Of a stretch of DNA of 64,000 nt, positions 1 to 17,681 are shown piece after piece. A program made the translations under genes and the position numbers. Each line of letters opens with the position of its first letter. Position 1 is the stretch's first letter. The notes below the pieces were generated by a model. It did no database searches, had not been told where the DNA came from, and saw only the letters and a program-made list of their open reading frames with translations. Location: the NCBI RefSeq assembly GCF_988242995.1, contig NZ_OZ547043.1; one strand, written 5' to 3'.

Positions 1-1962
1 GTAACCGAGCGCTGCCTGGGTGTTGCTATTATTCGGTTCCAGTTCCAGCGCGGCGCGCAAATCACTCACCGCCGCCGGGACATTATGACGTTGGCGATAA
101 ATTGTCGCCCGCGCAACGTAAGCGTTGGCAGAAGGCGCAATATTGATTGAGCGCGTGAGATCGTTCAGTGCGAGTTCCGGCTGACCAGGAATGTAACGTT
201 GCGCATGCAGCCACCAGTAGAGGGCATTGTTTCCCAGCCCACGTTGTTCTGCCTGCTGAAGCCAGCGATCGCGAGCCGCACCATTTCCTGCCGCCTGGGC
301 GGTATTGGCAGCAGCAAGCAGATCCTCATTGCTCATGTCGTGAAGACTGATTTTCTGCCAGGCCGCCAGTGCGGTGGCGTAATCCTCAACCTGATACGCC
401 TGATAGGCTACCGCACGATGTTGCCAGGCGTTCGGTTGTCGTTGTTCGGCCTGAAGCCATGCATACAACGCCACACCGGGTAGCGTGTCCCGATAACACT
501 TTGCCAGACGGTTCCAGGCGGCGGCATCGTAGGAAGGCGACATATCGCCCAGCAAGCGAACTATTGCCGGGCAATTATCTGCAATACCCGGCAACTGACT
601 TTGCCACTGACGTTGCTCCGCCAGCGGTAAGGGTTTCGATAAAATCGCCACCTTCGCCGGCGTTGCCAGGTAAGGATGACTTTCCAGCAGAGACGCCAGT
701 CGCGCCATTAAAGTCTGGCTGACACGCGCATCGCCCTGGAAAGGATAGCGTTGCAGCAATAAATCGGCAGCTTCGCGTGACTGCTCGTTCTGCATCAGTT
801 GCCAGGTCAGTTGATCCAGGCGGGTAAGATTTTCCGGTTCTTGCTGATACAGCAATCGTGCCAGACGCAGAGCTTCAGCCTTGTTATGGGTCGCTACGCT
901 AACGGTATAACGCTCCTCAAGCATTTCATTGGCGGGGAGGGTGGCGAGCAGTTTTTGCGCTGCGTCGTACTGACCTTCTTTTAACAGCACCGGTAGCGTC
1001 GCGCCAACAACATACTGGCGGTTGTCAGCAAACTGTACCGTATAATTCGCCAACGCCTGAACGGGGTTGCCGCTGTATTTAGATAACAGATAGAGCCAAC
1101 TTTTCTCTTGTGCGTCCGTGGTAAATAGCGGCGTATTTTCAATGAGATAACGCTGGAGGCGTGCTTTTTCGTCACGATAAGCCAGCGCGGTCGCGTAAGT
1201 AATATATGACTGCGGATCGGTGAAGATCCCCTGTGATTGCAGCGCCAGGATCCGATCGTCCAGCTGCCCGGCAAGAAGCACATCAAACCACTGGCGGCGT
1301 TCTGCCGCGCTTAATGTGTTCTGCTGGCGTGCTTCATTGTATAGCGTATCTGCCTGGGACCATTGCTTCAGGTAGATTGCCCGTTGCAGCAGATCGGTTC
1401 GCAGCGTTTTTCCTTCCGGCGATGCAGCAAACGTCGCATCGTTCAGTTGCGCTCTGGCGACAGGTAATTGTGCCAGCCGCAGGGCATTCTGCCCAACTTC
1501 ACTGCGACAACGCAGGGTCGGCGCAGCATCGCACGCTTTTTGCTGGGCAAGCAGTTCTTCAACAGTCGTAACGCTTTTCACTTCAACTGGAATAGCCGCC
1601 AGACTGCGCTCAAGTCGGGCATCTCCTGGGTGACGTTTCAGTTGATCCTCAAGCAACAGCCGCGCCCGGTCATCATGACCAAAATGGCGATAGGCTTCCG
1701 CAAGGTATAAAGTTAGCGGAATATTATCCGGCACCTGCTGGTGTATATATTCAAATTCGCGGATGGCGGTTGCTTCGTCGTTATTTTTCTGTGCCTTCAG
1801 CGCCTTGTCGAGACGGGGATAAATAACAAAATGGCGATAATCGCTCAGCCCCAGCTCTTCTGCGCTGGTGCCGATATTGTCTGCGAGTGCGCTGGTACTC
1901 AATAAAGACGTCAGCAGTAAACCAGACCATCCGATGACGCGATTAAGGTTATTCTCCTTCAT
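1..1962 (-). CDS. nfrA: Bacteriophage N4 adsorption protein A (NfrA), TPR outer-membrane protein; N-terminal ~654 codons only, 3' end lies beyond window start
   Basis: Minus-strand ATG at 1960-1962 preceded by AAGGAGAA-type RBS, translating MKENN...; overlaps nfrB stop by 14 bp as in K-12. Not in ORF track because no stop inside window. Confidence 0.85.
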   Translation of the reverse strand, partial: MKENNLNRVIGWSGLLLTSLLSTSALADNIGTSAEELGLSDYRHFVIYPRLDKALKAQKNNDEATAIREFEYIHQQVPDNIPLTLYLAEAYRHFGHDDRARLLLEDQLKRHPGDARLERSLAAIPVEVKSVTTVEELLAQQKACDAAPTLRCRSEVGQNALRLAQLPVARAQLNDATFAASPEGKTLRTDLLQRAIYLKQWSQADTLYNEARQQNTLSAAERRQWFDVLLAGQLDDRILALQSQGIFTDPQSYITYATALAYRDEKARLQRYLIENTPLFTTDAQEKSWLYLLSKYSGNPVQALANYTVQFADNRQYVVGATLPVLLKEGQYDAAQKLLATLPANEMLEERYTVSVATHNKAEALRLARLLYQQEPENLTRLDQLTWQLMQNEQSREAADLLLQRYPFQGDARVSQTLMARLASLLESHPYLATPAKVAILSKPLPLAEQRQWQSQLPGIADNCPAIVRLLGDMSPSYDAAAWNRLAKCYRDTLPGVALYAWLQAEQRQPNAWQHRAVAYQAYQVEDYATALAAWQKISLHDMSNEDLLAAANTAQAAGNGAARDRWLQQAEQRGLGNNALYWWLHAQRYIPGQPELALNDLTRSINIAPSANAYVARATIYRQRHNVPAAVSDLRAALELEPNNSNTQAALGY

Positions 1963-4186
1963 TTTCGGACTCCAGTTGCGCAACCTGTTCTGTGTTTAAA
2001 CCTGCTTTGAGTAATAGTGATTGCATCGAAACTTGTAATTCGCGTTGAATTGTCAGGACGCGATCCAACGTTTCCTGGCTGATAACGCCTTCGGTGACCA
2101 AAAACTTGCCGAGCGGCAGAGAACTACGTTCATGGCGCAATAACAACACGTTAATTGCTGAACGATTAATATGACCGAGTGTGGTCAGTATTTCGGCGAA
2201 CAGGAACTGATGCGGCACATATTGCCGCCAGATTTCACCGGCCTGCTGTTCCGTGAGCCACTGATGCTGAACCGCATTGTACAACATTGCCCGCGGATCG
2301 TGACCGCGTCGGCGCGCATACCAGTGGCGTAACCCCGTGACAATTTGTCCCCGCAGAACAATGACGTAACGCACTTTGCGTCCGACTTTACGCGTCAGGG
2401 CCGCCAGCGAAACCGGGTCAATACCATCTTCACTGCCGACAATTAACTCATCATTTTCCAGACGCAGCGGCAGTACTGCATAATGCAGCGCCACGGAGGC
2501 CGGCATTTCGGCAATCAGTGATGAAGGGATCTGCCAGGCGTCGATCGACTCCCACGCCACGCCGTTTTGCTCTGCCAGCGCCTGTGCCAGCTGTTCGGCG
2601 CTAATCAGCCCCTGCATCAGCATTGAACCGCCCAGGCGTAGACCTTCGACGCGATTACGCAGTGCTGTATCGAGTTGTTCTTCAGTGATGACCTGATTTT
2701 CCAGCAGGATTTGACCTAACGGACGCAACGAGCGGGTATCGCCAGTCACGCTGGGGAAGTCATGCGTTGTTTTATCCCACGCGACACGACGTGGATCGCC
2801 GTGTTGAAGTACCTGTTTTAACGCGCGCCAGTTGGCCATGAAGTTAATCAGGTTGCCCCAGAAAAGACGCAGGACAGATAGCAGCCCCTGCGTCAGGCCG
2901 TAGTAGCCAGTAACGAAAATCACCCGCTGCACGATGCGGTTAATCATCAAGCCAAAGTTTAGCCACAGCAGAGTCATTAACCATGCGCTGCCGCTGAAAA
3001 TAGAAAGGAAATGCCAGGCATCGGGCCACAAACTTTCATACGCCAGCAACAGCAAAAGCTGGATCATCACCAGCATCGCGAGGAAGCTGACAAAGTTACT
3101 GATTGCCCCTTTGCGGTCGCGCCAGAGAAAGTAGTTCAGCGTCAGGCTGGAGGTCCATTTGTGGGTTTTAAAGCCCTGGAAAACAATGCCGATGATCCAG
3201 CGAGATTTTTGTCGAACCGCAGTCGAAAAGGTATCGGGGAAATATTCGCGCACGCAGATCATGTTTGACGTCCGCGCGTGCTGTAAAAATTTACGCTGCT
3301 CGCGTTCTTTGGCTTCGTCCACCACCGGAAAACGGACAAAAATTTCCGTCATACCTTTTTCTTTCAGGCGGAAACCAATGTCGTAATCTTCAGTAAGACT
3401 CTGCACGTCGAAAGCAATACCGTCACCGTCAGCTAACAGTGCGGTCACGGCGCGGCGGCTGAAACAGGTGCCGACGCCTGCGCTGGGCACTTGTCCGGCG
3501 AGGGCTTCACGCACCGGAACATCTTTGCCATGCAGTTCTGAAAACTCATCAATGTAAGTCATGCTGGTGAAGTGCGTCCATTCGCGTTCGAACGGATACA
3601 CCGGGATCTGAATCAGATCTTTACGCTCGACCAGATAGTTGAACAGACGCAATTCCATCGGTGAAATTACGTCTTCGGCGTCATGCAGAATAAAACCAGC
3701 AAAAGCGAAATTGGCGCTACGCTCAAACTGGGTGATGGCGTCCAGCACGTTGTTCAGGCAGTCGGCTTTGCTGGTGGGGCCAGGACGCGCGCAGACTACC
3801 TTATGCACATTCGGGAAGCGAGCGCACACTTCGTCAACATCACGCTGAGTATCGGGGTCGTTGGGGTAGGTGCCAACAAAGATATGATAGTTTTCATAGT
3901 CGAGCGTGGTCGCCGCCAGCTCGGCCATATTGCCGATGACGCCCGTTTCATTCCACGCCGGAACCATAATCGCTAACGGTTTTTCATCTGGTTTATACAG
4001 TTCGCGGTAACTCATTCGCGGGTAGCGGCGATAAACACTCAACTTGCGTTTAATGCGGCGTACCCAGTAGACGACATCAATAAAAAAATCGTCCAGCCCG
4101 CTGATGAACATGATGACCGCTAACGTTATCGCGATTACTTTTAAGCCGTAGAGCCAGGTAGCAAAAACATCAAGAAGCCAGTCCAC
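1949..4186 (-). CDS. nfrB: Bacteriophage N4 adsorption protein B (NfrB), inner-membrane glycosyltransferase, 745 aa
   Basis: ORF track 745 aa, MDWLLDVFATWLYGLK..., full-length match to remembered NfrB; GTG start. Confidence 0.95.
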   Translation of the reverse strand: MDWLLDVFATWLYGLKVIAITLAVIMFISGLDDFFIDVVYWVRRIKRKLSVYRRYPRMSYRELYKPDEKPLAIMVPAWNETGVIGNMAELAATTLDYENYHIFVGTYPNDPDTQRDVDEVCARFPNVHKVVCARPGPTSKADCLNNVLDAITQFERSANFAFAGFILHDAEDVISPMELRLFNYLVERKDLIQIPVYPFEREWTHFTSMTYIDEFSELHGKDVPVREALAGQVPSAGVGTCFSRRAVTALLADGDGIAFDVQSLTEDYDIGFRLKEKGMTEIFVRFPVVDEAKEREQRKFLQHARTSNMICVREYFPDTFSTAVRQKSRWIIGIVFQGFKTHKWTSSLTLNYFLWRDRKGAISNFVSFLAMLVMIQLLLLLAYESLWPDAWHFLSIFSGSAWLMTLLWLNFGLMINRIVQRVIFVTGYYGLTQGLLSVLRLFWGNLINFMANWRALKQVLQHGDPRRVAWDKTTHDFPSVTGDTRSLRPLGQILLENQVITEEQLDTALRNRVEGLRLGGSMLMQGLISAEQLAQALAEQNGVAWESIDAWQIPSSLIAEMPASVALHYAVLPLRLENDELIVGSEDGIDPVSLAALTRKVGRKVRYVIVLRGQIVTGLRHWYARRRGHDPRAMLYNAVQHQWLTEQQAGEIWRQYVPHQFLFAEILTTLGHINRSAINVLLLRHERSSLPLGKFLVTEGVISQETLDRVLTIQRELQVSMQSLLLKAGLNTEQVAQLESENEGE

Positions 4187-4373
4187 ACAAAAACCTTACA
4201 TTAACGCTGGTTATGTTTAGGGTGGCGTATATTAAGGTTTTTTATGAATTGTGACAGCTTTTTACCATTAATAGGTATGACTATTGCGGCACGTTATTTT
4301 TACACTGGTTATAAAAGTTGCCGTTTGCGTAGAATGTAGACAAAAGCGTGGTGTCAAGGAGGGGAGGTTAACG

Positions 4374-5663
4374 CAGGGCAAGATTACGAAAGCCCGCTCC
4401 CCGCAAGGACTGACGCGAGATAGTTTCTGCCCATGGCTGCTTTTCGCATCTTACGTCTTAACCCTGCCTTGAATATCTTATCATTCGTTAAAATATTAAT
4501 AGCGATGTGCCGTATCCCTGAATATAATTCTGCGGCGTTTCCTCTTCTTATTTTGCAGTCGTCTTCATTCATTACCACGTCCAGACGCCAGTGCAGCTTA
4601 TTCTCCACGTGCCAGTGGTTTCGGATTGCTGTGGCGAACTTCTCTGCGGTTAAATCAGCAGAACTGATATAATATCTGACCGTCATTTCTGGCTCTTTCT
4701 TTTGTTCTGCTATTATTGACCGAAAGGAGACTGCCACACATAATTTCTTCAGTCCTTTCCATTCAAACGTGAAATCAATAAGTTCATCAGGGACATCGCA
4801 AACAATATGAAGACGGATTTCTTCTCTGCCGTGACTCTTTTCACTAATGGCGTAACTGTCATGCTCTGGATTATTTAATTCTTTCAGTGGAAATTTTTCC
4901 TCAAAGGCTTTATTAAGCCGCCCCTGGTTTCCTTTTACAGCGAATAAATAATCACCGCCCTGTTTTTGTATCTTCTCTGCAATATCTTTCTGGCAACCCA
5001 TCGCATCAGTTGTGATGATTTTTCCTTTAATATACAGCATGTTAAGAAGTTCTGGGATAGCTGTAATCTCATTAGATTTCTCATCCGTTCTGATCTGTCC
5101 GATGACCAGACTGTGCATTGTTGAGAACGCACTAATGACATGAATCGCTCCCCTGCGGCGACTCTTGTCATAAGAATGCCGGAGTGTTTTTCCATCGATT
5201 GCAATAACGTCTTTATCATCTGAAGTATGGCAATCTCGCATCCAGTTAATAAAGCACTCGTGAAATTTTGAAGGACTGATACAGGATACAACTCTGGCGA
5301 TGGTATCGTGAACAGGAATACCATTTTCAAAATCACCATATTGTTTTAAAAAATCGAGATGTGTTTCCCCAAAATCCTCTATATCTTCCCAACCTTCTGC
5401 ACCAGAAATAACGGCACAAATAGTCAACAGTAGAATATCCGATAATTTATGTTCCACTTTCCAGGCTTGTCTGTAATCGGGGATAATAGAAATATGCTCC
5501 ATCAATTTTTTAAGTTCCATTTTGTTCTCCTTAATTATGTAAGGAGTATTTGATCATGTATAAGCAATAAAAACAGCTTTAGGTAATGAGGAATATCTCA
5601 ATTTTTAAACATAAAATGCGAATTATTTAGTACAAAAAAGCAGCGTTACGTGATCTTTCCCTG
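4374..5663 (-). mobile_element. ISAs1-family insertion sequence (H-repeat / ISEc1-like), ~1.29 kb
   Basis: Contains H-repeat transposase ORF; imperfect terminal inverted repeats beginning CAGGG (left CAGGGCAAGATTACG near 4374, right ...ATCTTTCCCTG ending near 5663). Boundaries approximate. Confidence 0.6.
4384..5520 (-). CDS. ISAs1-family transposase (H-repeat-associated protein, YhhI-like), 378 aa
   Basis: ORF track [32 protein letters not shown]..., characteristic of Rhs-associated H-rpt proteins; strong AAGGAGA RBS upstream. Confidence 0.9.
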
Positions 5664-5743
5664 GTGTACTTCTGATGATCTTTCCCTGGGTTAAACAGGT
5701 GGTGAAGGGAATGAAGAATGGGATATCCGGCGTATTACGCGAG

Positions 5744-5780
5744 GTATAAAAATAAAAGCCGGGAGATTGTCACTCCCGGC
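5744..5780 (-). terminator. Rho-independent terminator downstream of the Rhs immunity gene (hairpin GCCGGGAGATTGTCACTCCCGGC flanked by T-runs on both strands)
   Basis: Perfect GC-rich inverted repeat at ~5758-5780 with T-run on the minus strand immediately after. Confidence 0.5.
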
Positions 5781-5786
5781 AACATA

Positions 5787-6068
5787 TTATTTTTTTATTT
5801 CATTATATCTGATAAAAAAAGTATTTAGTGCATCATGTTCATCTTGTGAGAACAATAAAATAATTTTATCCCATGAATGTCCTGTTACTCCATAATAGTC
5901 TTCAATATAAGATTGAAGCCTTATTAATATCTCAATATTGACGATTTCTTTTGGCTCTCTCATTTGCCATCCATCCAGGAAAGCTTTTAACGCCGATATG
6001 GTATGCCTGCTTAAATATAAAGCTGGTCTTTTTTCTATCATATCAATCAGTTTAACAATATCATTCAT
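5787..6068 (-). CDS. Putative Rhs immunity protein (RhsI-like), 93 aa, no recognised family
   Basis: Small ORF starting 2 bp after the rhs stop, AT-rich like the rhs 3' toxin-encoding end; this position is canonical for the cognate immunity gene. Function by position only. Confidence 0.55.
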   Translation of the reverse strand: MNDIVKLIDMIEKRPALYLSRHTISALKAFLDGWQMREPKEIVNIEILIRLQSYIEDYYGVTGHSWDKIILLFSQDEHDALNTFFIRYNEIKK

Positions 6069-6070
6069 AA

Positions 6071-9000
6071 TTAAAACCTTGATGGAGTAATGGTGTATTC
6101 GCCAGGAGAGTATATATCATTCAGCCAATCTTCATACTTTATACCAGAAGGATTCATATTATCAAAAACTGTATCACCTACTTTTATTGCTTCATGATGA
6201 CCATTAGTTGCTATATTTTTACCTATTCTATCACTCCATATATTGCCAAAGGCGCCTTGTTTATTTTTAGTTTCGAGTATGAGATGCTCACCATTTACCC
6301 CAGCTTGTTGCATTTTACTTTTTAACGCTGCGGCAAATTTATCGCATTGAAAAAGCTGTTTAAACTTATCACTTATTGTTGTTGCAAGATCCCTTGTTTT
6401 TGCGATATCGCAAATGGTTAATCCTAATGGATCAATATAACCAAGGGGATTATGAACATATGCATAATTGTTTATCCCGCCTCTCAGCCCTATCGGATCA
6501 CTCACCAGGTACATCCCGGTTTCCGGCTCGTAATACCGGAACCGGTTATAGCACAGCCCGGATTCCGCATCCTGCCACTGTCCTGCATACAGCAGGCCGG
6601 GGTCGGCTTCCGGGTCCAGCTCCCCACGCGGGTCCGGGTAGCCGGTGTCTGCGGGCAGGCTGAGTGCCAGCCCCCACAGGCTGGTCTGTCCCGGTCGCCA
6701 GACGGTTTTACCTTCACTGTTAAAGAGCATCAGCGGCCGGCCCGTCAGGTCGCTCACCGCATGATTCGTCCGCGTCACCCACTGCGGGGCCACGGACGGA
6801 TGCGCCTGCCGTACCCGGCTGCACTGCTGGCTTATCAGCTCAAAGCCGTTAAACACCAGGTGCCGCACACTGTACAGTTTATCATCGCGGTATTCCCGGA
6901 TTTCCGCAATACTGTCGCCATCCCACAGGTACGTAAAACGGATTTTCTTCCGGTCGCAGCGTTTCTCTGTTCGTCTGCCGCTGGCATCGTGGCGGTATTC
7001 CCACTGTTCACCCTGTGCGCTGCAATACCCGGTCAGCTGGTCCCGGCTGTCCCACCGGAACCGCTCTGTTTCCGGGCGGTAACCGTCACGGTGTCTGGTG
7101 CGGCTGACCATCCGGCCTGCGGCGTCATAGTCATACTGCGTGTTTCCGGCCTGTTTCAGCCGGTGGCCTCCGGCATACTGGTCAGTCTCTTCACTTATCC
7201 GGTGCCTGCCCGCAGACTGCGCCTTCAGGTAGCCGCAGCTGTCATAGCCATAAGTCTCATCGCCTTCGCCATAGCCCAGCCCGGTGCCTGAGGCTGTCAC
7301 CGCCGTGACCTGGCCGTTCCGGTCCAGCCGGTACTCCCGCCGTGTTTCCCGTCCGTAGTCTTCCCGGCTGGTGACAGCCGACACATTACCCGCGCTGTCG
7401 TAACGGTACTCCCGCACCAGTGAGGGGAGCAGCCCGCCCCATGTGGCTTCCGCCGGGAAAAATCCGGCGCGCTGGCTGACAGCCTGACCGGCTGCATTCC
7501 AGCCCTGCTCACAGGCAAAACCCCGGTTACTGTGCCGGAGCACTTCACGTCCTGCCTCATCACGGCTGAACGTCAGCGTCTCATCCCCCGGCAGGATAAC
7601 CTCCGTCAGTTCTCCGGCGGCGTTGTAGCGGTAGGTGGTTTTCAGCAGGGATTCACCGGGGTGTCTGTCGCGTTCATCTTCCGGTGGCAGGATACAGCGG
7701 ATGACGGTGTGTTCATCGGGGTGGTGGTATTCAATGGCCCGTCGGCCCTGAGTGGTGACATTCACCCGGCCGCGTTCGTCATAGCCGGTGCGCTGTGATG
7801 TGCCGTCCGGGCTGAAGATACCCGTCAGCCTGCCGGATTTGTCATACGCATACTGCGTTTTGCCTTCCGGCGTGATGACTTCTGCCAGGCGGCCTGCGGC
7901 GTCCCGGCTGTAGAGGATAGTTTCCTCCAGGCCGTTGACCCTGGCGGTACACAGGCCATCGGCGTCATAGCGGTAACGCCAGACCACGCCGCCCCAGTCA
8001 CGCTCTTCCGTCACCCGGCCGCAGTTATCCAGAACATAAAGATATGACTCACCCTGCGGATTGATGACTTCTGTCAGTTGCAGCGTGTCTTTATCGTAGC
8101 GGTACTGCCAGCGGTGGCCTTCACCGTCCGTTCGCGCCACCGGCAAATCAAACGGGCCGTACTCCATTGTCCAGACAACGCCATTGCCGTCCGTCCAGGC
8201 CAGCAGGTTGCCGTGGCGGTCGTTGCGGAATCCTTCCGCGCCGGTTCCAGTGCGCTCAAGGCCGCTCAGTTTATGGTGCTGCTGCCACTGCAACCGCACT
8301 GACTGACCGCCGGGGCCGCGCATCTTCACCGGCAGGTCGTGACCACTGTATTTGGTGTGGTGTTCGCGGCCCATCACGTCGGTGAGTGTTTCCGGCCGGT
8401 TGTGGCGGTCGTACTCTATGCCCAGACGCCGTTCATCCTGGCGGAATATCCCCGACAGCAGCCCCTGAGCGGTGTATGCCAGCCGGGTCTCTTCGCCCTG
8501 TGGCGACACCTGACTTACCGGCAGGCCGCGTTCATCACACTGCTGTGTCCACGTCTGCCCGGCAGGGTCGGTGATGTTGCTGAGCAGGCCGCGCTCATCA
8601 TAGCGGTACAGCCACTCCGCGCCGTCTGCCGCCGTGTAACGGCTTAACTGACCGAGTGCGGCGTTGTCTTCAAATTTCTCCACCCGCCCGGCAGGGGAGT
8701 GGCGGGCCAGCAGGTGATGGAATTCATCCCATTCATACGTGGTGGTACTGCCGTCCGGCGCGTCTTCCCGCAGGATATTGCCGTCAGGATCATAGTAATA
8801 ACGGTGAATGCCCTTGCCGTCCGTCACGGTGGTGCAGCCGTCCCCATAGTCCAGCGTGGCGTTGTAATAGCCCTCCGCCCCGGTGACGGTCACGCACCGG
8901 CCCTGTGTATCGTAGGTGAAACGGCTCCACGTCTGGTCGTTATCGGACCAGCGGATGATCCGGTCCGCATCGTCGTACTCATAAAACAGGTGGTAGTCCA

Positions 9001-10735
9001 GCCGCGCATCCGCTTCTGTCAGCCGCCCCCGCGCATCCTGTTCGTAGGTCGCCAGCGTCTGTATGCCGTTATCCGTGCGGTGAATGGCTTTCAGGTAGCC
9101 GCTGGCGTGGTACGTCAGTTTAAGCCGGATCCCGTCAGTGTGACTGACACCTGTGATCCGGTACTGGCTGTCGCGCTCAAACGTGATGCGGTTGCTGGCG
9201 GTGTCGCTCATCCCGCCCAGCATGTACATCCGGTCTGCGGGGCTGTGTGCCAGACGGTCATCGCTGGTATCGTCAGTCACCGGGTGGCGCAGACGCATTC
9301 CCGGAAAGGCGTCATAAAAGAAGCGGCTGCTCAGTGCATCCCTGTCGAACAGCTCCAGGTAATCATCGCGGCGGCGCAGAATGTACTGGGCGTGATACGG
9401 GTTAACCGCCGTATCACTGTCACCGTCGAAGGCAAATCTCAGCGTGGTTCCCTGGCTGATGATATCCACCCGGTTTCCCTGTTCACGCACCCAGGCGTAT
9501 TCGCTCCAGGAGTCGCTCCAGCCCACGCCCGTCAGGCCATGCAGTGGCAGTACAGAACTGTGGAAACGGGTGAAGGAGAGGGGGAGTGTCTGGCCCAGCG
9601 TAAAGTCGGTACGTTCGTCGCAGTATGCGCCGGTTACCGGATCGACAGGATCTGTTACCCATCTGATGACTTTATTGGCAATACTTTTTAACGACTTACC
9701 TGTTTTCCCCAGCAACGCGCCGAGCTTTGCCCCCAGCAGCTTCCCGCTTTTCCCCAGCAGGTTTCCCAGTTTGCCGAGTCTCGCCAGATTCTTCAGTTTT
9801 CCCAGCAGTCCCGCTGGCGGCAGAAGATAGCTGGCTATCGTTATTCCCCCCAGGATCATTCTCTGCCACGGCGGGAACTCCGGCTGGATATCCAGATAGG
9901 TGACCTGCTCACCCCCAATAAAGACGTCCGGCGAACCTTCCACGATTGCCGCACTGCACTCCAGTTTGTCCCCCTTGCGTGCAGCAGGCTGATTGTTGAT
10001 AAAGACGTTGCTGCTGCCCTGGGCTATCCTCGGCGGTTTGTTCTCCTTGTCGCAGAGCGCCGTGTCCTCACCGGCTTCCGGGAAATCCACGTCTTTTTTG
10101 ATTTCGCCACGCCCGCCCACCATGGTGGCAAACTCCATTAATACCGGACCGGCGGGAAACAGAAGCGATGCGCCGGCGCTGACGCGATCCATAATACCGG
10201 CATTGCTGTCCGTCAGGGTGATAACAGCGTTCCCCCAGGCCTTCGCCAGTGGTACTGCTTTTTCCGCTGCCGATTCAAGCAGGTCAGTGGCAATATCCCC
10301 CCATGAAGGTTCCCCCTGTGGTAGAGAGGGTATTGCTTCAGTCAGGGGAGGAGGGGGAAGGGTGACGGCGGCCCTGGCAGCGGGCTTTCCGTTAATTTTT
10401 ACATTTTTAGAACCAGTATTGATGGCCCCGTCCTTGTCACAAAAGCTGTTTATCCATGACTCAAGCTGGTTCTGTTTCTCCTCCACATAATCACTCGCCT
10501 TATAGCTGGCATACATCAGCGCAGGCACCAGAACCAGCGCATAAGGGCCGGTGGCGCAGGCGGCCATAATCAGGCAACCTTCTGCGATAGTTACTATCGC
10601 CCCCAGCACGGCCCCTGCCAGTGCCCCCAGAAAACTTTTATGCTGAATTTCATCGTCCAGTCTGGCGGCAGGTGGGCCGGACTTCTTTGCTGCCAGCATC
10701 TCTGCAATGGCTTTGTCGTTGGCTGCCCGTTTCAT
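6071..10735 (-). CDS. rhs: Rhs-family T6SS effector: N-terminal prePAAR motif ([10 protein letters not shown]) and transmembrane segment, PAAR domain, YD-repeat core, DPxGL cleavage motif, unrecognised 115-aa C-terminal toxin domain; 1554 aa
   Basis: ORF track 1554 aa; repeated YD/RYxYD motifs, PAAR motifs, ...[27 protein letters not shown] near C-terminus. Start could instead be Met13 (about 10699). Confidence 0.9.
   Translation of the reverse strand: [1554 protein letters not shown]
6074..6418 (-). other. Variable C-terminal toxin domain of the Rhs protein (residues after DPLGL), AT-rich, family not recognised
   Basis: Base composition shifts from the GC-rich rhs core to AT-rich downstream of the DPxGL motif, typical of displaceable Rhs-CT/immunity cassettes. 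Confidence 0.7.
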
Positions 10736-10800
10736 CTAGCTGGCGACCATCGCCCGCTGCGACTGCATTCGCATTGCCAGCGTACCGCCTGCGGTCGCTC

Positions 10801-10886
10801 CCTGTGGCCCGCTCTGTCCTTCGCTCATTGGTTTTATCCCTGTGGCCCGCTCTGTCCTTCGCTCATTGGTTTTATCCCTGTGTCTG
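10801..10886. repeat. Direct tandem repeat, 38-bp unit CCTGTGGCCCGCTCTGTCCTTCGCTCATTGGTTTTATC x2 plus partial third copy, in the eagR-rhs intergenic region
   Basis: Read directly from sequence at 10801-10838 and 10839-10876, then CCTGTG. Confidence 0.85.
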
Positions 10887-11348
10887 TCAGCGCGGCTGGT
10901 CCTGTTTGATATTCTTCTCCGGCGGTAATGGTGTGAAGCTCTTTATCACATCGAGCAGCATCGTCTTTTGACTGTTCTTAAGGGGTAAAGACGTACTGAA
11001 CGTGAAGGTCAGCAGCGTATCACCACGCCGCTGAAATACGGCTATCTGGCTAATCCGCCCCTGATTCCCTTCATCTTCCGGACCGTTCCAGGAATAATCC
11101 AGCAGCCAGGCCGGGGCCTCTGCCAGAGTGATTTCCCGGCAGGCATGTTCGGTGTAACCGTCCAGCTTGCCCTGGTACAGCGCCAGCGTTTCCTTGTACA
11201 GTTCTGGTGTCAGGGTTCCCTGTGGAACGGGTTCGCGGGTAATGACCAGGTTGATGCCACTGTTATCTGTGGACACCAGGACCTGCATTGACTGATCCTG
11301 CCATTGCGATGGCAGCTGAATATGACCTTCATTAAAAGTGAACTGCAT
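10887..11348 (-). CDS. DUF1795-family (EagR-like) effector-associated chaperone, 153 aa
   Basis: ORF MQFTFNEGHIQLPSQWQDQSMQVLVSTDNSGINLVITREP... lying between vgrG and a prePAAR Rhs effector; AGGGAG RBS. Confidence 0.75.
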   Translation of the reverse strand: MQFTFNEGHIQLPSQWQDQSMQVLVSTDNSGINLVITREPVPQGTLTPELYKETLALYQGKLDGYTEHACREITLAEAPAWLLDYSWNGPEDEGNQGRISQIAVFQRRGDTLLTFTFSTSLPLKNSQKTMLLDVIKSFTPLPPEKNIKQDQPR

Positions 11349-11375
11349 AAAATACTCCCTGATAATTTGAATGAA

Positions 11376-13277
11376 TCAGTTAATGAAAACAGAACCGCCC
11401 ACGATGGTGATGCCATCCTTCGACAGCCTGATTACCGTCGATTCCCCGACCTGTAGCTGAATGCCATCCGGCGTCAGCGCAATTTTGCTTTCCTCCACGG
11501 CCAGCATAATTTGCTTAATTGCCGTATAAGCCTGTATACCGTCGCCTTCGCCACCATTGTTTACAGCGTCAACATGCACTGAACCGGCAATCGTGCCTCT
11601 GTCCTGAAAAACATCCTCAGATAAAGACCCTTTTAGTACGCCTGTGATTTTGTGGCCTTTTTCCACCGTAAGAAGGCGGTTACCTTCCTGGATCGTGACC
11701 GTCTGGTCATTTTTTACGGTTTCGCGGTGATCGTGTTTTACGGTGGTGGTACGGTCGTTGAGTACCTCGGTATCCATGTTCTTCTGGGCGTGGATGTAGA
11801 CCTGTTCTTTCCCTGTCGCATCGTCAAACTTCAGCTCGTTAAACCCGCTGCCCATATATGTTTTGGAGCGGATGGTCATCTGCGTCTTCGTTCCCGGCAG
11901 GCTGCCCGGCGAGCGGTTATCTTCGTGGTAGGTGCGCCCCATAATGATCGGCTGGTCCGGATCGCCGTTGAGGAAGTCCACAATGACCTCCTGACCCACA
12001 CGCGGTATCGCCAGATTGCCGAACCCGGCTCCTGCCCACGCCTGTGCCACACGGATCCAGCACGAACTGTCCTGGTCTGCCGGGTTATAGCGGTCCCAGT
12101 TGAATTTCACCCGCACCCGGCCATGCTCGTCGCAGAAGATTTCCTCTCCCGCAGGCCCCGTCACGACGGCGCTCTGTGGACCGTCCACTGACGGCTTTGG
12201 CTTCGGCTGTGGCCGCCACGTCCGGTCTGCCGGGATTACCACAAACTGGTTCTCCAGCGCCGTCCCCGCGCCCCGCCGTCCCGGCACCGCCTGCGGCTGT
12301 TCGCCGTGCAGTTCGCTCGCCACCACCTGCCATTCCCGGTTCAGGTTCGCCTGCGGATGCTCCGTCAGCACAATTCGCCGTCCCGGCCATATCTCCGGCG
12401 AGCGGCTCATTCCCCGCGCGGTTTCTGCGTTGTTTCGCCAGCCGTCCATCTGCCAGCGGGCAAAGTTCTGCCCGTGGGCGCTCTTGAAACGCCCGGGGTA
12501 GTCATACACTTCATACTGCGTGCGCTGGTAGTCCTGGTGCTGGCCTTCCTGTTCAAAACGTCCGGCCCAGCCGGGGCGTTTAAAGGTGTAGTCTTTGGTC
12601 ACCACGGAAGAAGGGCGGATTTGTGCGCTGTAGCGGAACTGGCTGATGCAGAGGGTGCTCACCTCGGTACGGGTGTTCGGGTTCCATGGGATTTCAAAAG
12701 ATTCGGGCAGATGGCGGACTGTGTCGCACAGCACCAGGCTCTGGTCGGTACTTTTGTAAGCATGCTCCTCATAAAAGAAGATGCCTTCCTCCGCCGCCAT
12801 CCGGCACAGGAAATCGTAATCAGTCTCACCGTACTGGACACAAAACTCACGGGAAGGATGCGGCTCGCTGAACAGCGGACTCCATTCGGTCACCCCGTTT
12901 TCCTGCAACATCGTGCCGAGGATGCTTCTGATGTCCTCGTTCTGGAAGATACGGAAGTTCTGACGCAGTCCTGCCCGCCACAGCGGCGGGCGCACCTTCA
13001 TGCTGTACAGCATCTGGTTTTTGTCGTTCTCCCCGAGTTCAAACCAGGTCACCACGCCTTTCACCCGGCGCTGTACGTCATCGCCCTGCCATACCGTCAG
13101 GTAGGCCATTTTGTCCAGCACCTGCGCAAATTCAAGGTAGAGAAACTGCTGACTGACCAGAGAAAGGTCAAGGGAAAAAAGTGAAGAGAGTGACTGGGTG
13201 AGATGAAAGGAGACCACCGCAAAAGCGTCCGGTGGCAGGCCGTCCACTTCCAGTGTGAAACGTAATCCGGTTGACAT
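11376..13277 (-). CDS. vgrG: Type VI secretion system spike protein VgrG (Rhs-element Vgr protein), 633 aa
   Basis: ORF track translation contains MSTGLRFTLEVDGLPPDAF... ending ...KDGITIVGGSVFIN; start moved to Met13 (ATG at 13277 with GGAGG RBS). Confidence 0.9.
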   Translation of the reverse strand: MSTGLRFTLEVDGLPPDAFAVVSFHLTQSLSSLFSLDLSLVSQQFLYLEFAQVLDKMAYLTVWQGDDVQRRVKGVVTWFELGENDKNQMLYSMKVRPPLWRAGLRQNFRIFQNEDIRSILGTMLQENGVTEWSPLFSEPHPSREFCVQYGETDYDFLCRMAAEEGIFFYEEHAYKSTDQSLVLCDTVRHLPESFEIPWNPNTRTEVSTLCISQFRYSAQIRPSSVVTKDYTFKRPGWAGRFEQEGQHQDYQRTQYEVYDYPGRFKSAHGQNFARWQMDGWRNNAETARGMSRSPEIWPGRRIVLTEHPQANLNREWQVVASELHGEQPQAVPGRRGAGTALENQFVVIPADRTWRPQPKPKPSVDGPQSAVVTGPAGEEIFCDEHGRVRVKFNWDRYNPADQDSSCWIRVAQAWAGAGFGNLAIPRVGQEVIVDFLNGDPDQPIIMGRTYHEDNRSPGSLPGTKTQMTIRSKTYMGSGFNELKFDDATGKEQVYIHAQKNMDTEVLNDRTTTVKHDHRETVKNDQTVTIQEGNRLLTVEKGHKITGVLKGSLSEDVFQDRGTIAGSVHVDAVNNGGEGDGIQAYTAIKQIMLAVEESKIALTPDGIQLQVGESTVIRLSKDGITIVGGSVFIN

Positions 13278-14020
13278 AGCAACCTCCGTGAAAATGAATA
13301 ATAATCCGCACATATTGCATGTACAACATGTCGGGTAATGAGATAAGCGGGCCGGCTTCAGGTGTTACCGGGGAATATCAGAAAAGTGTCATGGTTATGT
13401 GAGAATTTTGTCCGGGATTTTACTTCAGAGAAACGGGGGTCTGTTGAGTCAACAAAATAATCACAAACTCAACTGACGGGTTCACGATGTTATTAAGGAC
13501 AGGCTCGTATATTACATCGAGTAACAAAAAAACACCTGATATGCAAAGTTAAACCAATATTCATAATGTCTTTTTATTCACAGTAATAAATAATTCAATA
13601 AACATCATTGAAATGAATGATGGTTTGTATAAGGAATATACGCTACCGCCCCACCCTGATAACATGATCTGCACATTGCCATCTTAACGTCGTTAGACGC
13701 TGGCTTAATAGTGAATATTTTAAATTAGGAATTTATCAAATCCACTTGATAAATAGATTGTGTGAATAATATAGAGATTAATGATGCCTGACTGCGCTTT
13801 ATATTATAGCCGATTCTTTTATAGTGATGAAAATTTAGTAATAGCATTGTGCTCTACAATTGGTAGAAACACGAATTTGATTAAATTGCATATCTAAATA
13901 TCTCGTAAATATCCGAAAATGAATAACCTTCGATTTCAGACGACCAATAAGGTCTTCCCTGTTTTATTGATAAATAATAACAGAAGGCGATACATCACTC
14001 TTTGAGTTTGAACTAACTAA

Positions 14021-15469
14021 TTAACCTTTCTCCGGTAGTTTGATCATAAACCTTGTTCCCCGCGCATCTGACGTTACCGCAACCGTGCCTTTATGCGCGA
14101 CAACAATTGATTTCACTATCGCCAGGCCAATGCCGCTACCTTCGCCTTTTCGCTGGCGGGAAGGATCAACGCGGTAGAAACGGTCAAACAATCGCGGTAA
14201 GTGTTCGGGCGCAATGGGCGTACCGGGGTTTTCGACGGAAACTTGCACCTGGTGATCGACCGTCTGGCAGCGCACAACAATTGCCTCTCCGGGTGGCGTA
14301 TAACGCAGGGCGTTCGAAAGCAGGTTGCTTAACGCCCGACGCAGCATCAGCGGATCGCCCGCAACCTGACACTCGTCACCAACAAACCGCAACTCCACGC
14401 CGCGATCTTCCGCTAACGCCTCGAAAAAATCGAACACTTTGCCGACTTCATCCGCCAGGTTGAGCATTTTCTTTTCGGGGATTAACTGGTTGTTATCGGC
14501 CTGGGCGAGAAACAACATATCGCTGACCATTTTCGCCATTCGCGTCAGCTCTTCGAGATTAGAGTAGAGCACATCTTCCAGCTCCTTCTGGCTGCGTGAC
14601 TGGCTGAGGGCGATTTCGGTTTGCGTTATGAGATTCGTAATTGGTGTACGAATTTCGTGAGCGATATCCGCTGAGAAATTGGACTGGCGAGTAAAGACAT
14701 CCTCAATACGCTCGATCATATGGTTGAACGACAGTACCAGCTGTTCCAGCTCAATCGGCACGGTCTGCGGGTCAAGGCGAACGTCGAGATCTTTCGAGGT
14801 GATATTCTGGATTTGACGGCTGACGCTGCGGATCGGCGCGTGACCTTTATGTACCGCCAATAGCACGATAAAGACGATCAGGATGCTGATGATCGATGCG
14901 GTCATAATAAGTTTATTCATCAAATCATTTATGTAATGAAGATGAAAATCGATCGAAAGCGCGATGTAGAGCGTATAAATCGGTTTGCCGTCCACCAACG
15001 GGCCAACCGGCAAGTTAATCATCCGCCAGTTGCTGTGTTCCATATGCCCGTGACCGTGGCCCGGCATCATCATTGTCGGGCCGGAAAGGAGATACACCTC
15101 GCCGCCCCGCGCGTCTTTATCGGGTATGGCATCACGTGCAAACTCGCGGATATCGGGCGCACCGGGGGAGTGATATACCGTTTTACCGTGGCTATCTGCC
15201 AGGGAGATCAACACATTGGAATAACCACTGACAATATCTTCCAGCGTCATTAAGCGTCGGGCTTGCGTTTCGTCAGGGTGATTAAGTACCCGTTCAAGTG
15301 TGGCGCTAATTTCTTTTAAATCATTAATATCCTGCTCGGCAAAATGCACTTTTACCGAGTGGATCATTATCCATGCAAAGGCGAAAAACGCCGCGATGGT
15401 GGCGAGGCTGATAAAAAAGGTCAGGCGGGTTGCCAGCGAAAACGGGCGCTGAAATGGCTTACTGACCAT
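14021..15469 (-). CDS. cusS: Copper/silver sensor histidine kinase CusS
   Basis: ORF track match to CusS; start set at [16 protein letters not shown] (ATG at 15469), overlapping cusR 3' end by 11 bp. Confidence 0.95.
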
Positions 15470-16142
15470 CCGGCACCTCAAGCATGTAACCCACGCCGCG
15501 CACGGTTTGAATCAGCTTCGGCTCAAAGTCGTTGTCGATTTTGCCACGCAGCCGCTTCACCGCCACATCAATGGCGTTAGTGTCGCTGTCGAAATTCATG
15601 TCCCACACCTGCGAGGCGATAAGCGAGCGGGGCAGCACTTCGCCCTGATGGCGAAGGAAAAACTCCAGCAGAGTAAACTCTTTACTGGTCAGAGTGATGC
15701 GCGTACCGCTGCGGGTGACTTTGCGGCTGACGAGATCGACCATCAAATCGGCAACCTGAAACTGACTTTCGATAATCACCGCCGCCCCGCGCCGCAGTAA
15801 TGTGCGCACCCGCGCCAGCAGTTCAGCAAAAGCGAATGGCTTCACCAGGTAGTCATCTGCCCCCAACTCCAGCCCCTTGACGCGATGTTCAATGGTGCCA
15901 AGCGCGGTAAGCAACAGAATCGGCATCCCTTTATTGGCGGAACGCAACATACGCACGATATCCCAGCCGTTCACGTCTGGCAGCATAATATCGAGGATTA
16001 TCAGGTCATAATCACCGGTCATCGCCAGATGGTAGCCATTCAGCCCGTTGTCGGCCAAATCGACCACAAAACCGGCTTCGGTTAACCCTTTGGTCAAGTA
16101 TTCTCCGGTTTTCTTTTCATCTTCGACAATCAACAGTTTCAT
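15459..16142 (-). CDS. cusR: Copper/silver response regulator CusR, 227 aa
   Basis: ORF track [20 protein letters not shown]..., OmpR-family; GGAGG RBS. Confidence 0.97.
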
Positions 16143-16207
16143 ATTTCCTCCGCATGTTGCCCGGGCAATTCTAGAGTAGCGGGATCAGATGGCAATCGCT
16201 TATTGGC

Positions 16208-16229
16208 AAAATGACAATTTTGTCATTTT
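16208..16229. promoter_or_regulatory. CusR box, perfect palindrome AAAATGACAATTTTGTCATTTT, in the divergent cusR/cusC promoter region
   Basis: Palindrome read from sequence; matches the known CusR-binding consensus. Confidence 0.8.
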
Positions 16230-16298
16230 CCTGTCACCGGAAAATCAGAGCCTGGCGGGTAAAGTTGGCGACATAAAATCACCAGAAATTATGTGCCT

Positions 16299-17681
16299 AT
16301 GTCTCCTTGTAAACTTCTGCCATTTTGTGTGGCCCTTGCGCTAACCGGTTGTTCACTGGCACCGGATTATCAGCGCCCGGCAATGCCCGTGCCGCAGCAG
16401 TTCTCACTCAACCAGAACGGCCTGGTTAACGCAGCAGATAACTACCAGAACGCGGGCTGGCGCACCTTTTTTGTTGATAATCAGGTGAAGACGCTGATTA
16501 GCGAGGCGCTGGTGAATAACCGGGATTTGCGCATGGCGACGCTGAAAGTGCAGGAAGCGCGGGCGCAATATCGTCTGACCGATGCCGACCGCTACCCACA
16601 GCTCAATGGCGAGGGCAGCGGCAGCTGGAGCGGCAATCTTAAAGGCGATTCAGCCACGACGCGGGAGTTCTCGACTGGCCTTAACGCCAGCTTTGATCTC
16701 GATTTTTTCGGTCGCTTAAAGAACATGAGCGAAGCCGAGCGACAAAATTATTTAGCCACTGAGGAAGCCCAGCGCGCGGTGCATATTCTGCTGGTTTCTA
16801 ATGTCGCGCAAAGCTATTTCAATCAGCAGCTGGCGTATGCGCAATTGCAAATCGCCGAAGAAACGCTGCGTAATTATCAGCAGTCATATGCGTTTGTCGA
16901 AAAACAACTGTTGACCGGTAGCAGCAATGTTCTGGCGCTGGAACAGGCTCGCGGGGTGATTGAAAGTACCCGCAGCGACATCGCTAAACGTCAGGGGGAA
17001 CTGGCGCAGGCGAATAATGCATTGCAACTGTTATTGGGAAGCTACGGCAAGCTGCCGCAAGCGCAGACAGTAAACAGCCACAGCCTGCAAAGCGTTAAAT
17101 TACCGGCGGGCTTGTCGTCGCAAATTTTATTGCAGCGCCCGGATATTATGGAAGCTGAACACGCGTTAATGGCGGCTAATGCCAATATTGGTGCTGCACG
17201 TGCAGCATTTTTCCCGTCTATCAGCCTGACCAGCGGAATATCGACCACCAGCAGCGATCTGTCGTCATTATTTAACGCCAGCAGCGGGATGTGGAATTTT
17301 ATTCCCAAAATTGAGATCCCCATTTTTAATGCCGGACGCAACCAGGCCAATCTGGATATCGCCGAAATTCGCCAGCAGCAGTCGGTGGTGAATTATGAAC
17401 AGAAAATCCAGAACGCCTTTAAAGAAGTGGCAGATGCGCTGGCATTACGTCAAAGCCTGAACGATCAAATTAGCGCCCAGCAGCGTTATCTGGTGTCGCT
17501 GCAAATTACTTTGCAACGGGCGCGGGCATTATATCAGCACGGCGCAGTAAGCTATCTGGAAGTGCTGGATGCTGAGCGTTCTTTATTTGCAACCCGACAA
17601 ACTTTACTTGACCTGAATTATGCCCGTCAGGTTAGCGAAATTTCTTTATATGCCGCCTTAGGCGGCGGTTGGCAGCAATAA
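16299..17681 (+). CDS. cusC: Copper/silver efflux outer membrane factor CusC
   Basis: ORF track; start set at ATG giving MSPCKLLPFCVALALTGCSLAPDY (lipoprotein signal); track ORF begins 6 bp upstream at GTG. Confidence 0.93.
   Translation: MSPCKLLPFCVALALTGCSLAPDYQRPAMPVPQQFSLNQNGLVNAADNYQNAGWRTFFVDNQVKTLISEALVNNRDLRMATLKVQEARAQYRLTDADRYPQLNGEGSGSWSGNLKGDSATTREFSTGLNASFDLDFFGRLKNMSEAERQNYLATEEAQRAVHILLVSNVAQSYFNQQLAYAQLQIAEETLRNYQQSYAFVEKQLLTGSSNVLALEQARGVIESTRSDIAKRQGELAQANNALQLLLGSYGKLPQAQTVNSHSLQSVKLPAGLSSQILLQRPDIMEAEHALMAANANIGAARAAFFPSISLTSGISTTSSDLSSLFNASSGMWNFIPKIEIPIFNAGRNQANLDIAEIRQQQSVVNYEQKIQNAFKEVADALALRQSLNDQISAQQRYLVSLQITLQRARALYQHGAVSYLEVLDAERSLFATRQTLLDLNYARQVSEISLYAALGGGWQQ

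Follow-up and report, generated by a model that had tools for sequence, protein, structure and literature searches.

A VgrG/EagR/Rhs module with a predicted Tox-PL-2 toxin and an early amber codon at the nfrB-cusS locus of Escherichia coli

In Escherichia coli K-12 MG1655, the nfrB and cusS genes are separated by 149 bp. In the DNA analysed here, a 64-kb stretch of contig NZ_OZ547043.1 (further referred to as the window), 9.7 kb of non-K-12 sequence lies between the same two genes. What does this segment encode, how unusual is it in E. coli, and are its products likely to act? The window was checked by an open reading frame (ORF) map, family searches with hidden Markov models (HMMs) and genome alignments. 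The segment is very probably an accessory ("orphan") spike-effector module of a type VI secretion system (T6SS), of the VgrG/EagR/class I prePAAR-Rhs kind, situated at a standard variable locus of E. coli.

Composition of the module and its link to type VI secretion

All domains that define such a module are present and follow one another in the canonical order. From upstream to downstream, its features are as follows.

13278-14020, no strand: AT-rich non-coding tract of 743 bp upstream of vgrG (GC content 0.31-0.37)
11376-13277, minus strand: vgrG, 633 aa, spike protein without C-terminal effector extension (TIGR03361, E 6.6e-188)
10887-11348, minus strand: eagR-type chaperone gene, DcrB/DUF1795, 153 aa (PF08786, E 7.9e-28)
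10807-10882, minus strand: 38-bp tandem duplication, two copies, over the rhs ribosome-binding region and ATG
10739-10828, minus strand: first 30 codons, cut off from the ancestral rhs frame (MSEGQSGPQGATAGGTLAMRMQSQRAMVAS)
10736-10738, minus strand: premature amber codon TAG (CAG, Gln31, in relatives), with an ATG directly after it at 10733-10735 (comparison with relatives)
6071-10735, minus strand: rhs restart ORF, 1554 aa, with prePAAR, transmembrane (TM) region, PAAR, Rhs cage, DPLGL and toxin
10640-10669, minus strand: prePAAR motif AARLDDEIQH, residues 23-32 of the 1554-aa protein (PF25799 prePAAR_I, E 3.5e-05, residues 23-69)
9899-10030, minus strand: PAAR domain, residues 236-279 (PF05488, E 8.6e-10; NF033420, E 7.4e-11)
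6074-6418, minus strand: Tox-PL-2 toxin domain, last 115 residues of Rhs, after the DPLGL cleavage motif
5787-6068, minus strand: predicted immunity gene, 93 aa, all-alpha, without signal peptide
5758-5780, minus strand: GC-rich hairpin with a T-run behind it, resembling a terminator, 6 nt past the immunity stop codon (hairpin scan)

Gene content, gene order and minus-strand orientation agree with the first-pass annotation of this DNA, which was made from the letters alone and also placed an AT-rich tract of about 0.7 kb ahead of the genes. Its interpretation of the segment as an accessory spike-effector module is correct in kind.

The Phage_GPD, Phage_base_V and Gp5_trimer_C domains of VgrG were identified on the identical vgrG of a sister contig (L007). 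The mechanical vgrG ORF extends to 13313; we set the start at 13277, where GGAGG is found upstream and where relatives start as well. The chaperone encoded between vgrG and rhs belongs to the DcrB family (formerly DUF1795). Its sequence matches the EagT6 structure 6XRF (E 4.9e-05), which makes it only a distant relative of the solved Eag proteins. The AT-rich tract is kept together with the island in relatives and is a part of it, presumably serving as promoter and regulatory region; in a promoter scan of the tract, sites were no commoner than expected by chance. An Rfam scan of the island gave no match at E <= 1.

According to Pfam, the 1554-aa Rhs protein contains prePAAR_I, PAAR, DUF6531 and nine RHS repeats; the Rhs-associated core TIGR03696 is present as well, so that the prePAAR, PAAR and Rhs matches expected by the first-pass annotation were all obtained. 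Hydrophobic helices lie at about residues 33-75, right after the prePAAR motif. Ahead of PAAR, Kyte-Doolittle windows above 1.6 start only at residues 33-56, and one borderline window is found at 293. Class I prePAAR effectors are recognised by the AARxxDxxxH motif together with a TM region before PAAR, and they depend on an Eag chaperone (PMC7773334). The Rhs protein belongs to this class, having AARxxDxxxH near the N-terminus, a single TM region before PAAR, and the Rhs cage. The same combination, with an adjacent DUF1795 chaperone, occurs in Salmonella Rhs1/SciW and Pseudomonas protegens RhsA/EagR1 (PMC7773334). The E. coli family differs from these by an unusually long leader of 53 residues ahead of the motif, of which the window lineage has lost 31 (the 30 severed codons and Gln31).

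The closest solved structure is Tre23 of Photorhabdus laumondii (7PQ5, E 3e-253, residues 223-1440), likewise a T6SS Rhs protein that sits on VgrG and has an EagR partner. The match covers PAAR, cage and core and stops at residue 1440, the DPLGL boundary; the C-terminal toxin of Tre23 is unrelated. At 90% identity, the Rhs protein falls into a cluster of 12,802 sequences. Homologues from this cluster are more than 90% identical up to DPLGL and unrelated beyond it. This pattern is characteristic of polymorphic toxins. In a look at the spread of the family outside E. coli, species representatives gave no match to a 26-mer taken from the prePAAR region.

The first-pass annotation had compared the gene order with classical RhsG/RhsE-type elements. 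This label fails where it could be tested, namely for RhsD and RhsE. Protein identity is 24% to K-12 RhsD and 24-30% to rhsE, blastn of rhs against K-12 rhsD and rhsE revealed no nucleotide similarity, and the NCBIfam RHS_core equivalog NF041261 scores 155.8 bits against a cut-off of 2000. Judged by its sequence, the protein is not a classical K-12-type Rhs core. The GC-rich core (0.60-0.65), the AT-rich toxin/immunity tip (0.31-0.37, as in the upstream tract) and the downstream ISEc1 H-repeat are shared with K-12 RhsA-E; in contrast to these, the window protein has prePAAR and TM regions, and its gene is found in linkage with vgrG and eagR.

Modules of this type have already been described in the same species. 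E. coli VgrGO1-EagR-Rhs-CT/CTI modules have the order vgrG, eagR, PAAR-Rhs-CT, immunity gene (Ma et al. 2017, as covered by PMC6730261 and bioRxiv 10.1101/2024.03.05.583533). VgrGO1 and the eagR/DUF1795 gene upstream of rhs-ct, as well as T6SS, are required for Rhs-CT delivery in E. coli, as stated in the review PMC6730261, citing Ma et al. 2017. The module type is therefore already published as T6SS-dependent. The same review attributes ten different toxin domains to Rhs-CT1 to CT10 and names some of these, namely metallopeptidase-4, restriction endonuclease-3, toxin-55 RNase and putative DNases/RNases; Tox-PL-2 of the window is not among the domains named there. In the described modules the immunity gene is often followed by orphan cassettes, whereas the window lineage has no orphan array. 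The N-terminal rhs amber codon of the window is a further difference.

We wondered where the secretion apparatus for such a module is encoded. In strain JNE23-011, an island-bearing relative, a T6SS core is located at aspV, beside tRNA-Asp and about 335 kb from the island, and comprises hcp, tssM, tssA, vasI, tssH, tssL, tssK and tssJ. The VasL-domain gene of this core is annotated as frameshifted and several genes of the rhs array of the strain contain internal stops; parts of the system may be decaying there. Among 5426 complete E. coli genomes, the aspV-type core occurs in 2877 and the island junction in 2678; these similar numbers are marginal counts, not co-occurrence per genome. By analogy with the described modules, it is reasonable to assume that the window module depends on a T6SS core elsewhere in the genome.

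The nfrB-cusS site in E. coli

K-12 homology ends at window position 4328 and resumes at 14034. The non-K-12 segment consequently amounts to 9.7 kb (4329-14033), in place of 14 bp in K-12. On the right, the junction falls inside the last cusS codons: CusS ends with ...FMIKLPEKG (482 aa) here and with ...FVITLPA (480 aa) in K-12, and the altered C-terminus spans window positions 14021-14046. The empty and occupied states thus differ by a swap of the cusS 3' end and 14 bp. The first-pass annotation was right that the K-12 gap is small (it gave about 0.2 kb) and that the island is absent there; the insertion between nfrB and cusS that it described is, judging by the junctions, no clean one. The flanking features are listed below.

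1949-4186, minus strand: nfrB (ORF map)
4329-4373, no strand: left end of the non-K-12 segment, 45 bp, from the K-12 junction to ISEc1 (K-12 homology ends at 4328; ISEc1 homology starts at 4374)
4374-5663, minus strand: ISEc1 copy (ISAs1 family, "H-repeat"), 1290 bp (match to other ISEc1 copies)
4384-5520, minus strand: ISAs1-family transposase ORF, 378 aa, intact in the window (NF033564 transpos_ISAs1, E 1.7e-123)
5690-5749, plus strand: symE remnant, last 19 codons and stop codon, convergent with the immunity gene (tblastn)
14021-14033, minus strand: island-type 3' end of cusS, altered last codons (alignment with K-12)
14021-15469, minus strand: cusS (ORF map)
15459-16142, minus strand: cusR (ORF map)

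Further, we examined how frequent either state of the locus is in the 5426 genomes. The K-12-like contiguous empty site is present in 2326 of them (43%), and the vgrG/AT-tract/cusS junction in 2678 (about 49%). Among the carriers, the junction itself shows 95-99% identity to the window in 949 and 80-95% in the others. At least 80% of the whole 12.5-kb region is matched in 908 genomes. Since both states are frequent, they represent two common, old alternatives of the locus and no rare insertion; in this emphasis the first-pass annotation was wrong. The nfrB-cusS interval is one of the standard variable T6SS effector sites of E. coli, not the place of a rare acquisition. Our literature search found no paper naming nfrB together with vgrG.

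Elsewhere the window consists of common core genes (cus, pheP, fep, ent, cstA), with 14-34 kb and 34-59 kb each aligning collinearly in one piece. The best identity of the core flanks (14021-58900 and 1-4328) to any of the complete E. coli genomes is 98.3%, while the nfrB side is 99.3% identical to K-12. No complete RefSeq genome represents the window lineage, which matches GCA_958328545.1, and the region has a mosaic appearance.

The ISEc1 copy is 96-97.6% identical over its full 1290 bp to the ydcC and yhhI copies of other genomes, both being H-repeat sites of K-12. Its transposase ORF is split in three sister contigs (L006, L008 and L009). The symE remnant was detected with the full SymE of L005 as query (18 of 19 residues identical), and relatives annotate the same remnant as partial SymE. 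It is cut off near the ISEc1 end. In other genomes, each orphan cassette is followed by a complete symE, so that symE seems to travel with these cassettes. L005 is the ybgA/phrB (rhsC-type) locus of E. coli d1-58 (NZ_CP187961.1, 1433976-1452776). There, orphan rhs toxin/immunity cassettes alternate with two tandem copies of a module of about 6.5 kb (at about 4167-9050 and 10733-15583). Each copy encodes a XerC-like tyrosine recombinase, a CHC2 zinc-finger (primase-like) protein of about 910 aa, an HTH protein and SymE. This module looks like an integrative element tied to the orphan cassettes.

The Tox-PL-2 domain and the 93-aa protein behind it

The last 115 residues of Rhs match Pfam Tox-PL-2 (PF15643, E 8.6e-23). 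A full-library search with this domain retrieved 425 representative clusters at E up to 0.001, and in 109 of the 117 best matches examined the domain lies at most 20 residues from the C-terminus. An alignment of 44 members reveals that C25, H75, D86 and N87 are invariant and N72 nearly so. The published signature of the family is C / NxxH / DN (Zhang et al. 2012, PMC3482391), and the window toxin fits it by these five conserved positions. The best fold matches are protein-glutaminase, NTAQ1 and SseI, with 100-104 of the 115 residues aligned and Z scores above those of rival folds; the nearest neighbours in structure are thus deamidases of protein glutamine. As far as conserved residues and fold matches can tell, the domain is a Cys-His-Asp enzyme of the papain/transglutaminase fold. 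PADLOC returned nothing for the toxin, the 93-aa protein or the chaperone.

With the family as surveyed (PMC3482391), the window toxin shares the extreme C-terminal position on an RHS polymorphic toxin and the conserved residues. The survey lists beta- and deltaproteobacteria, cyanobacteria and firmicutes as hosts, type II secretion system (T2SS) and TcdB/TcaC delivery, and Imm73 immunity. The window differs in all three respects: its host is a gammaproteobacterium, its context is that of T6SS, and its immunity protein has no Pfam family.

The ORF of this 93-aa protein begins 2 nt past the rhs stop codon. The protein has no signal peptide and no lipobox, no Pfam match even at E <= 10, and no match in NCBIfam. 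Structure prediction gives it a small helical bundle, for which no informative neighbour was found. Homologues are encoded directly behind Tox-PL-2-ending Rhs proteins, beside a VgrG, in Burkholderia mayonis and Kosakonia, and adjoin the toxin in Yokenella. As the pairing is conserved across different delivery scaffolds, there is good evidence that the 93-aa protein is the cognate immunity protein. In B. mayonis (CP013388.1, L019) and Kosakonia (L020/L021), the Rhs proteins carrying the pair have neither PAAR nor prePAAR and follow VgrG and an unannotated protein of 421-517 aa that is presumably another kind of adaptor. The toxin tip has passed from one delivery scaffold to another, unrelated one. 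Downstream of the 93-aa ORF, the hairpin at 5758-5780 has 8 pairs, 7 of them G-C, and the tail TTTTATTTTT. It is the one site of this kind detected, where chance would give 0.3.

Is this toxin/immunity cassette common in E. coli? It was detected in 7 of the 5426 genomes, as a silent orphan in all seven. These orphan copies are fragments that contain internal stops and at most 1.5-1.8 kb of rhs core, located either last in the array beside a symE remnant and ISEc1 or at an rhsC-type locus. The window has this cassette (99.5% identical) joined in frame to full-length rhs, an arrangement seen only in the window lineage.

Comparison with a relative (L001) that has a main and an orphan rhs is instructive for the origin of this arrangement. 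Window positions 6485-7982 align to both of them, and the window corresponds to L001 minus the main toxin, the main immunity gene and the spacer. Because the two L001 copies are equally distant from the window across the shared 1.5 kb, the crossover cannot be placed. The fused cassette is either the ancestral arrangement or the product of a homologous deletion between main and orphan copies. In Salmonella Typhimurium, main-orphan recombination activates an orphan rhs toxin (PMC3967940). The window resembles this case in that a cassette that is orphan elsewhere is fused in frame to full-length rhs, and the 1.5 kb of main/orphan homology in its relatives could mediate the deletion. It differs in that the fused state could equally be ancestral, with relatives having gained new toxins.

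The amber codon and alternative readings of the module

The first-pass annotation had taken the 1554-aa ORF as the effector gene. Its domains are as anticipated; what had escaped notice is that this ORF is what remains of a 1585-codon ancestral frame after an amber codon at position 31. Relatives begin 31 codons upstream (MSEGPGGPQG...MVASQ-MKRA), and the window reads TAG where they read CAG (window versus L001). MSEGPG...MVASQMKRA is found in each of the 12 full-length cluster members. In the window, the restart ATG abuts the stop codon in frame (UAGAUG). In the sister contig L010 the severed leader of 30 codons is called as a 30-aa gene of its own.

A second alteration lies nearby. The 38-bp duplication doubles the rhs ribosome-binding site and the original ATG, and its first copy opens a dead-end ORF of 10 codons. 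Since L010 carries the amber codon without the duplication, the duplication is the younger of the two. Public contigs that encode the exact 1554-aa protein number at least 17 (NCBI and ENA entries and Logan samples), hence the amber allele is real. The NCBI contig CATUEA010000015.1 (GCA_958328545.1) is 100% identical to window positions 71-16735. The exact 30-mer with TAG is absent from GTDB species representatives and JGI metagenomes, and among complete genomes of E. coli the region of TAG and duplication has no match above 76% coverage at 95.9% identity. From its near-identical sister contigs L006, L008 and L009, the window differs only in 4813-5347 (ISEc1), 12657-12762 (vgrG) and 14597-14690 (cusS). 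Three such tight clusters are the pattern expected of gene conversion or recombination tracts, not of scattered mutation.

Several observations speak against a working T6SS effector module. The amber codon may lower or abolish Rhs production, and no obvious Shine-Dalgarno sequence precedes the restart ATG. The intact 1554-aa ORF tells nothing about selection, because the sister contigs are effectively clonal. No T6SS structural genes (hcp, tss, core cluster) occur within the 64-kb window, as the first-pass annotation had noted, and in the T6SS core of JNE23-011 the gene with a VasL domain is annotated as frameshifted (L016, 37771-39181). As to the toxin, the literature search revealed no experimentally characterised Tox-PL-2 member, and the 93-aa protein, lacking any Pfam match, is not Imm73, the family tied to Tox-PL-2 by Zhang et al.

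The module could accordingly be in decay: the amber codon would make rhs a pseudogene, and only the immunity gene, perhaps with vgrG, would still matter, for example as protection against kin with the same toxin. We regard this as a serious rival, though the less likely of the two readings. It would account for a TAG in place of the CAG found in all full-length homologues inspected, for the restart ATG without a clear ribosome-binding site and for the second lesion close by, and pseudogenised rhs is common at this locus in relatives. The in-frame UAGAUG adjacency, on the other hand, favours termination-reinitiation, and the remaining 4.66-kb ORF bears no further lesion. The prePAAR motif, TM region, PAAR, cage, DPLGL and catalytic residues are all located downstream of the restart. 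Typical class I prePAAR effectors moreover start only a few residues before the motif, and Salmonella Rhs1 was modelled with residues 8-57 (PMC7773334). Because all parts known to be needed lie downstream and stop and start abut, we favour reinitiation: judging from the sequence, restart at the abutting ATG probably yields a working, less abundant effector. Another reading, implicit in the first-pass annotation, supposes that the island is mobile and was recently carried by ISEc1 into an ancestral site of K-12 type. The ISEc1 copy 45 bp from the left junction, the atypical base composition and the absence of the island from K-12 would suit it. Yet there is a single IS copy at a single end; a repeat scan detected no convincing terminal inverted repeat pair at 4374/5663 and no target duplication, and direct repeats flanking the island were not found. 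The right junction replaces the cusS end and spacer instead of splitting a target, and a vgrG island occupies this site in about half of E. coli, with no fewer than two diverged forms among them. Identity to K-12, 95.5% on the cusS side and 99.3% on the nfrB side, fits old haplotypes exchanged by flanking homologous recombination. Recent insertion is thus rather improbable.

Two further alternatives concern the toxin. It might be a periplasmic cell-wall amidase or peptidase of NlpC/P60 or Tse1 type, which also seems unlikely. Protein-glutaminase, NTAQ1 and SseI are better fold matches with higher Z scores, the immunity protein has neither signal peptide nor lipobox, and class I TM helices are proposed to carry the toxin across the inner membrane of the target (PMC7773334). 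Alternatively, the pair could be a toxin-antitoxin-like regulator acting inside the producer independently of T6SS. Such a role has been reported for Salmonella rhs elements (PMC7043789); in the window the complete delivery set of VgrG, EagR and prePAAR/PAAR would then serve no purpose, which makes this explanation very improbable. Given that the immunity protein is cytoplasmic and the class I scaffold bears TM helices, and given the fold neighbours, we infer instead that the toxin modifies a protein in the cytoplasm, most likely as a deamidase.

The T6SS effector module that we prefer to these alternatives could operate as follows. The AT-rich tract would drive a vgrG-eagR-rhs-immunity operon ending at the hairpin. 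Translation of rhs would restart at UAGAUG, giving, probably in smaller amounts, a product in which prePAAR, TM region, PAAR, cage and toxin are retained. EagR would cover the N-terminal TM helices, and Rhs would be seated on the VgrG trimer through the prePAAR motif and PAAR domain. The spike would be fired into a neighbour cell by a T6SS core whose genes lie elsewhere. The Rhs cage would cut itself at DPLGL and free the 115-residue Tox-PL-2 domain, which may modify a cytoplasmic protein of the target, while in sister cells the 93-aa cytoplasmic protein would neutralise it.

A more specific proposal can be put forward only tentatively. Tox-PL-2 might be an antibacterial toxin of glutamine deamidase or transglutaminase type, delivered by T6SS to the target cytoplasm and countered by an undescribed all-alpha immunity family, the window lineage being the only one seen with the cassette in the expressed slot, possibly through main-orphan recombination. 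If true, E. coli Rhs toxins would be credited with an effector activity for which there is no earlier demonstration among them.

The module type is established; two details are new. One is that the expressed slot is taken by a rare and uncharacterised toxin, Tox-PL-2, together with an immunity protein that belongs to no described family. The other is the amber codon early in rhs, with the restart next to it. The rhs gene of this lineage should carry an early-amber flag in annotation. With both partners in the expressed position of a well-understood scaffold, the lineage provides a natural construct in which the pair is easy to test. It may also be a field example of the orphan-toxin fusion shown so far in Salmonella laboratory evolution. 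The UAGAUG junction, finally, offers a simple case for asking whether the long N-terminal leader of the E. coli Rhs family is dispensable.

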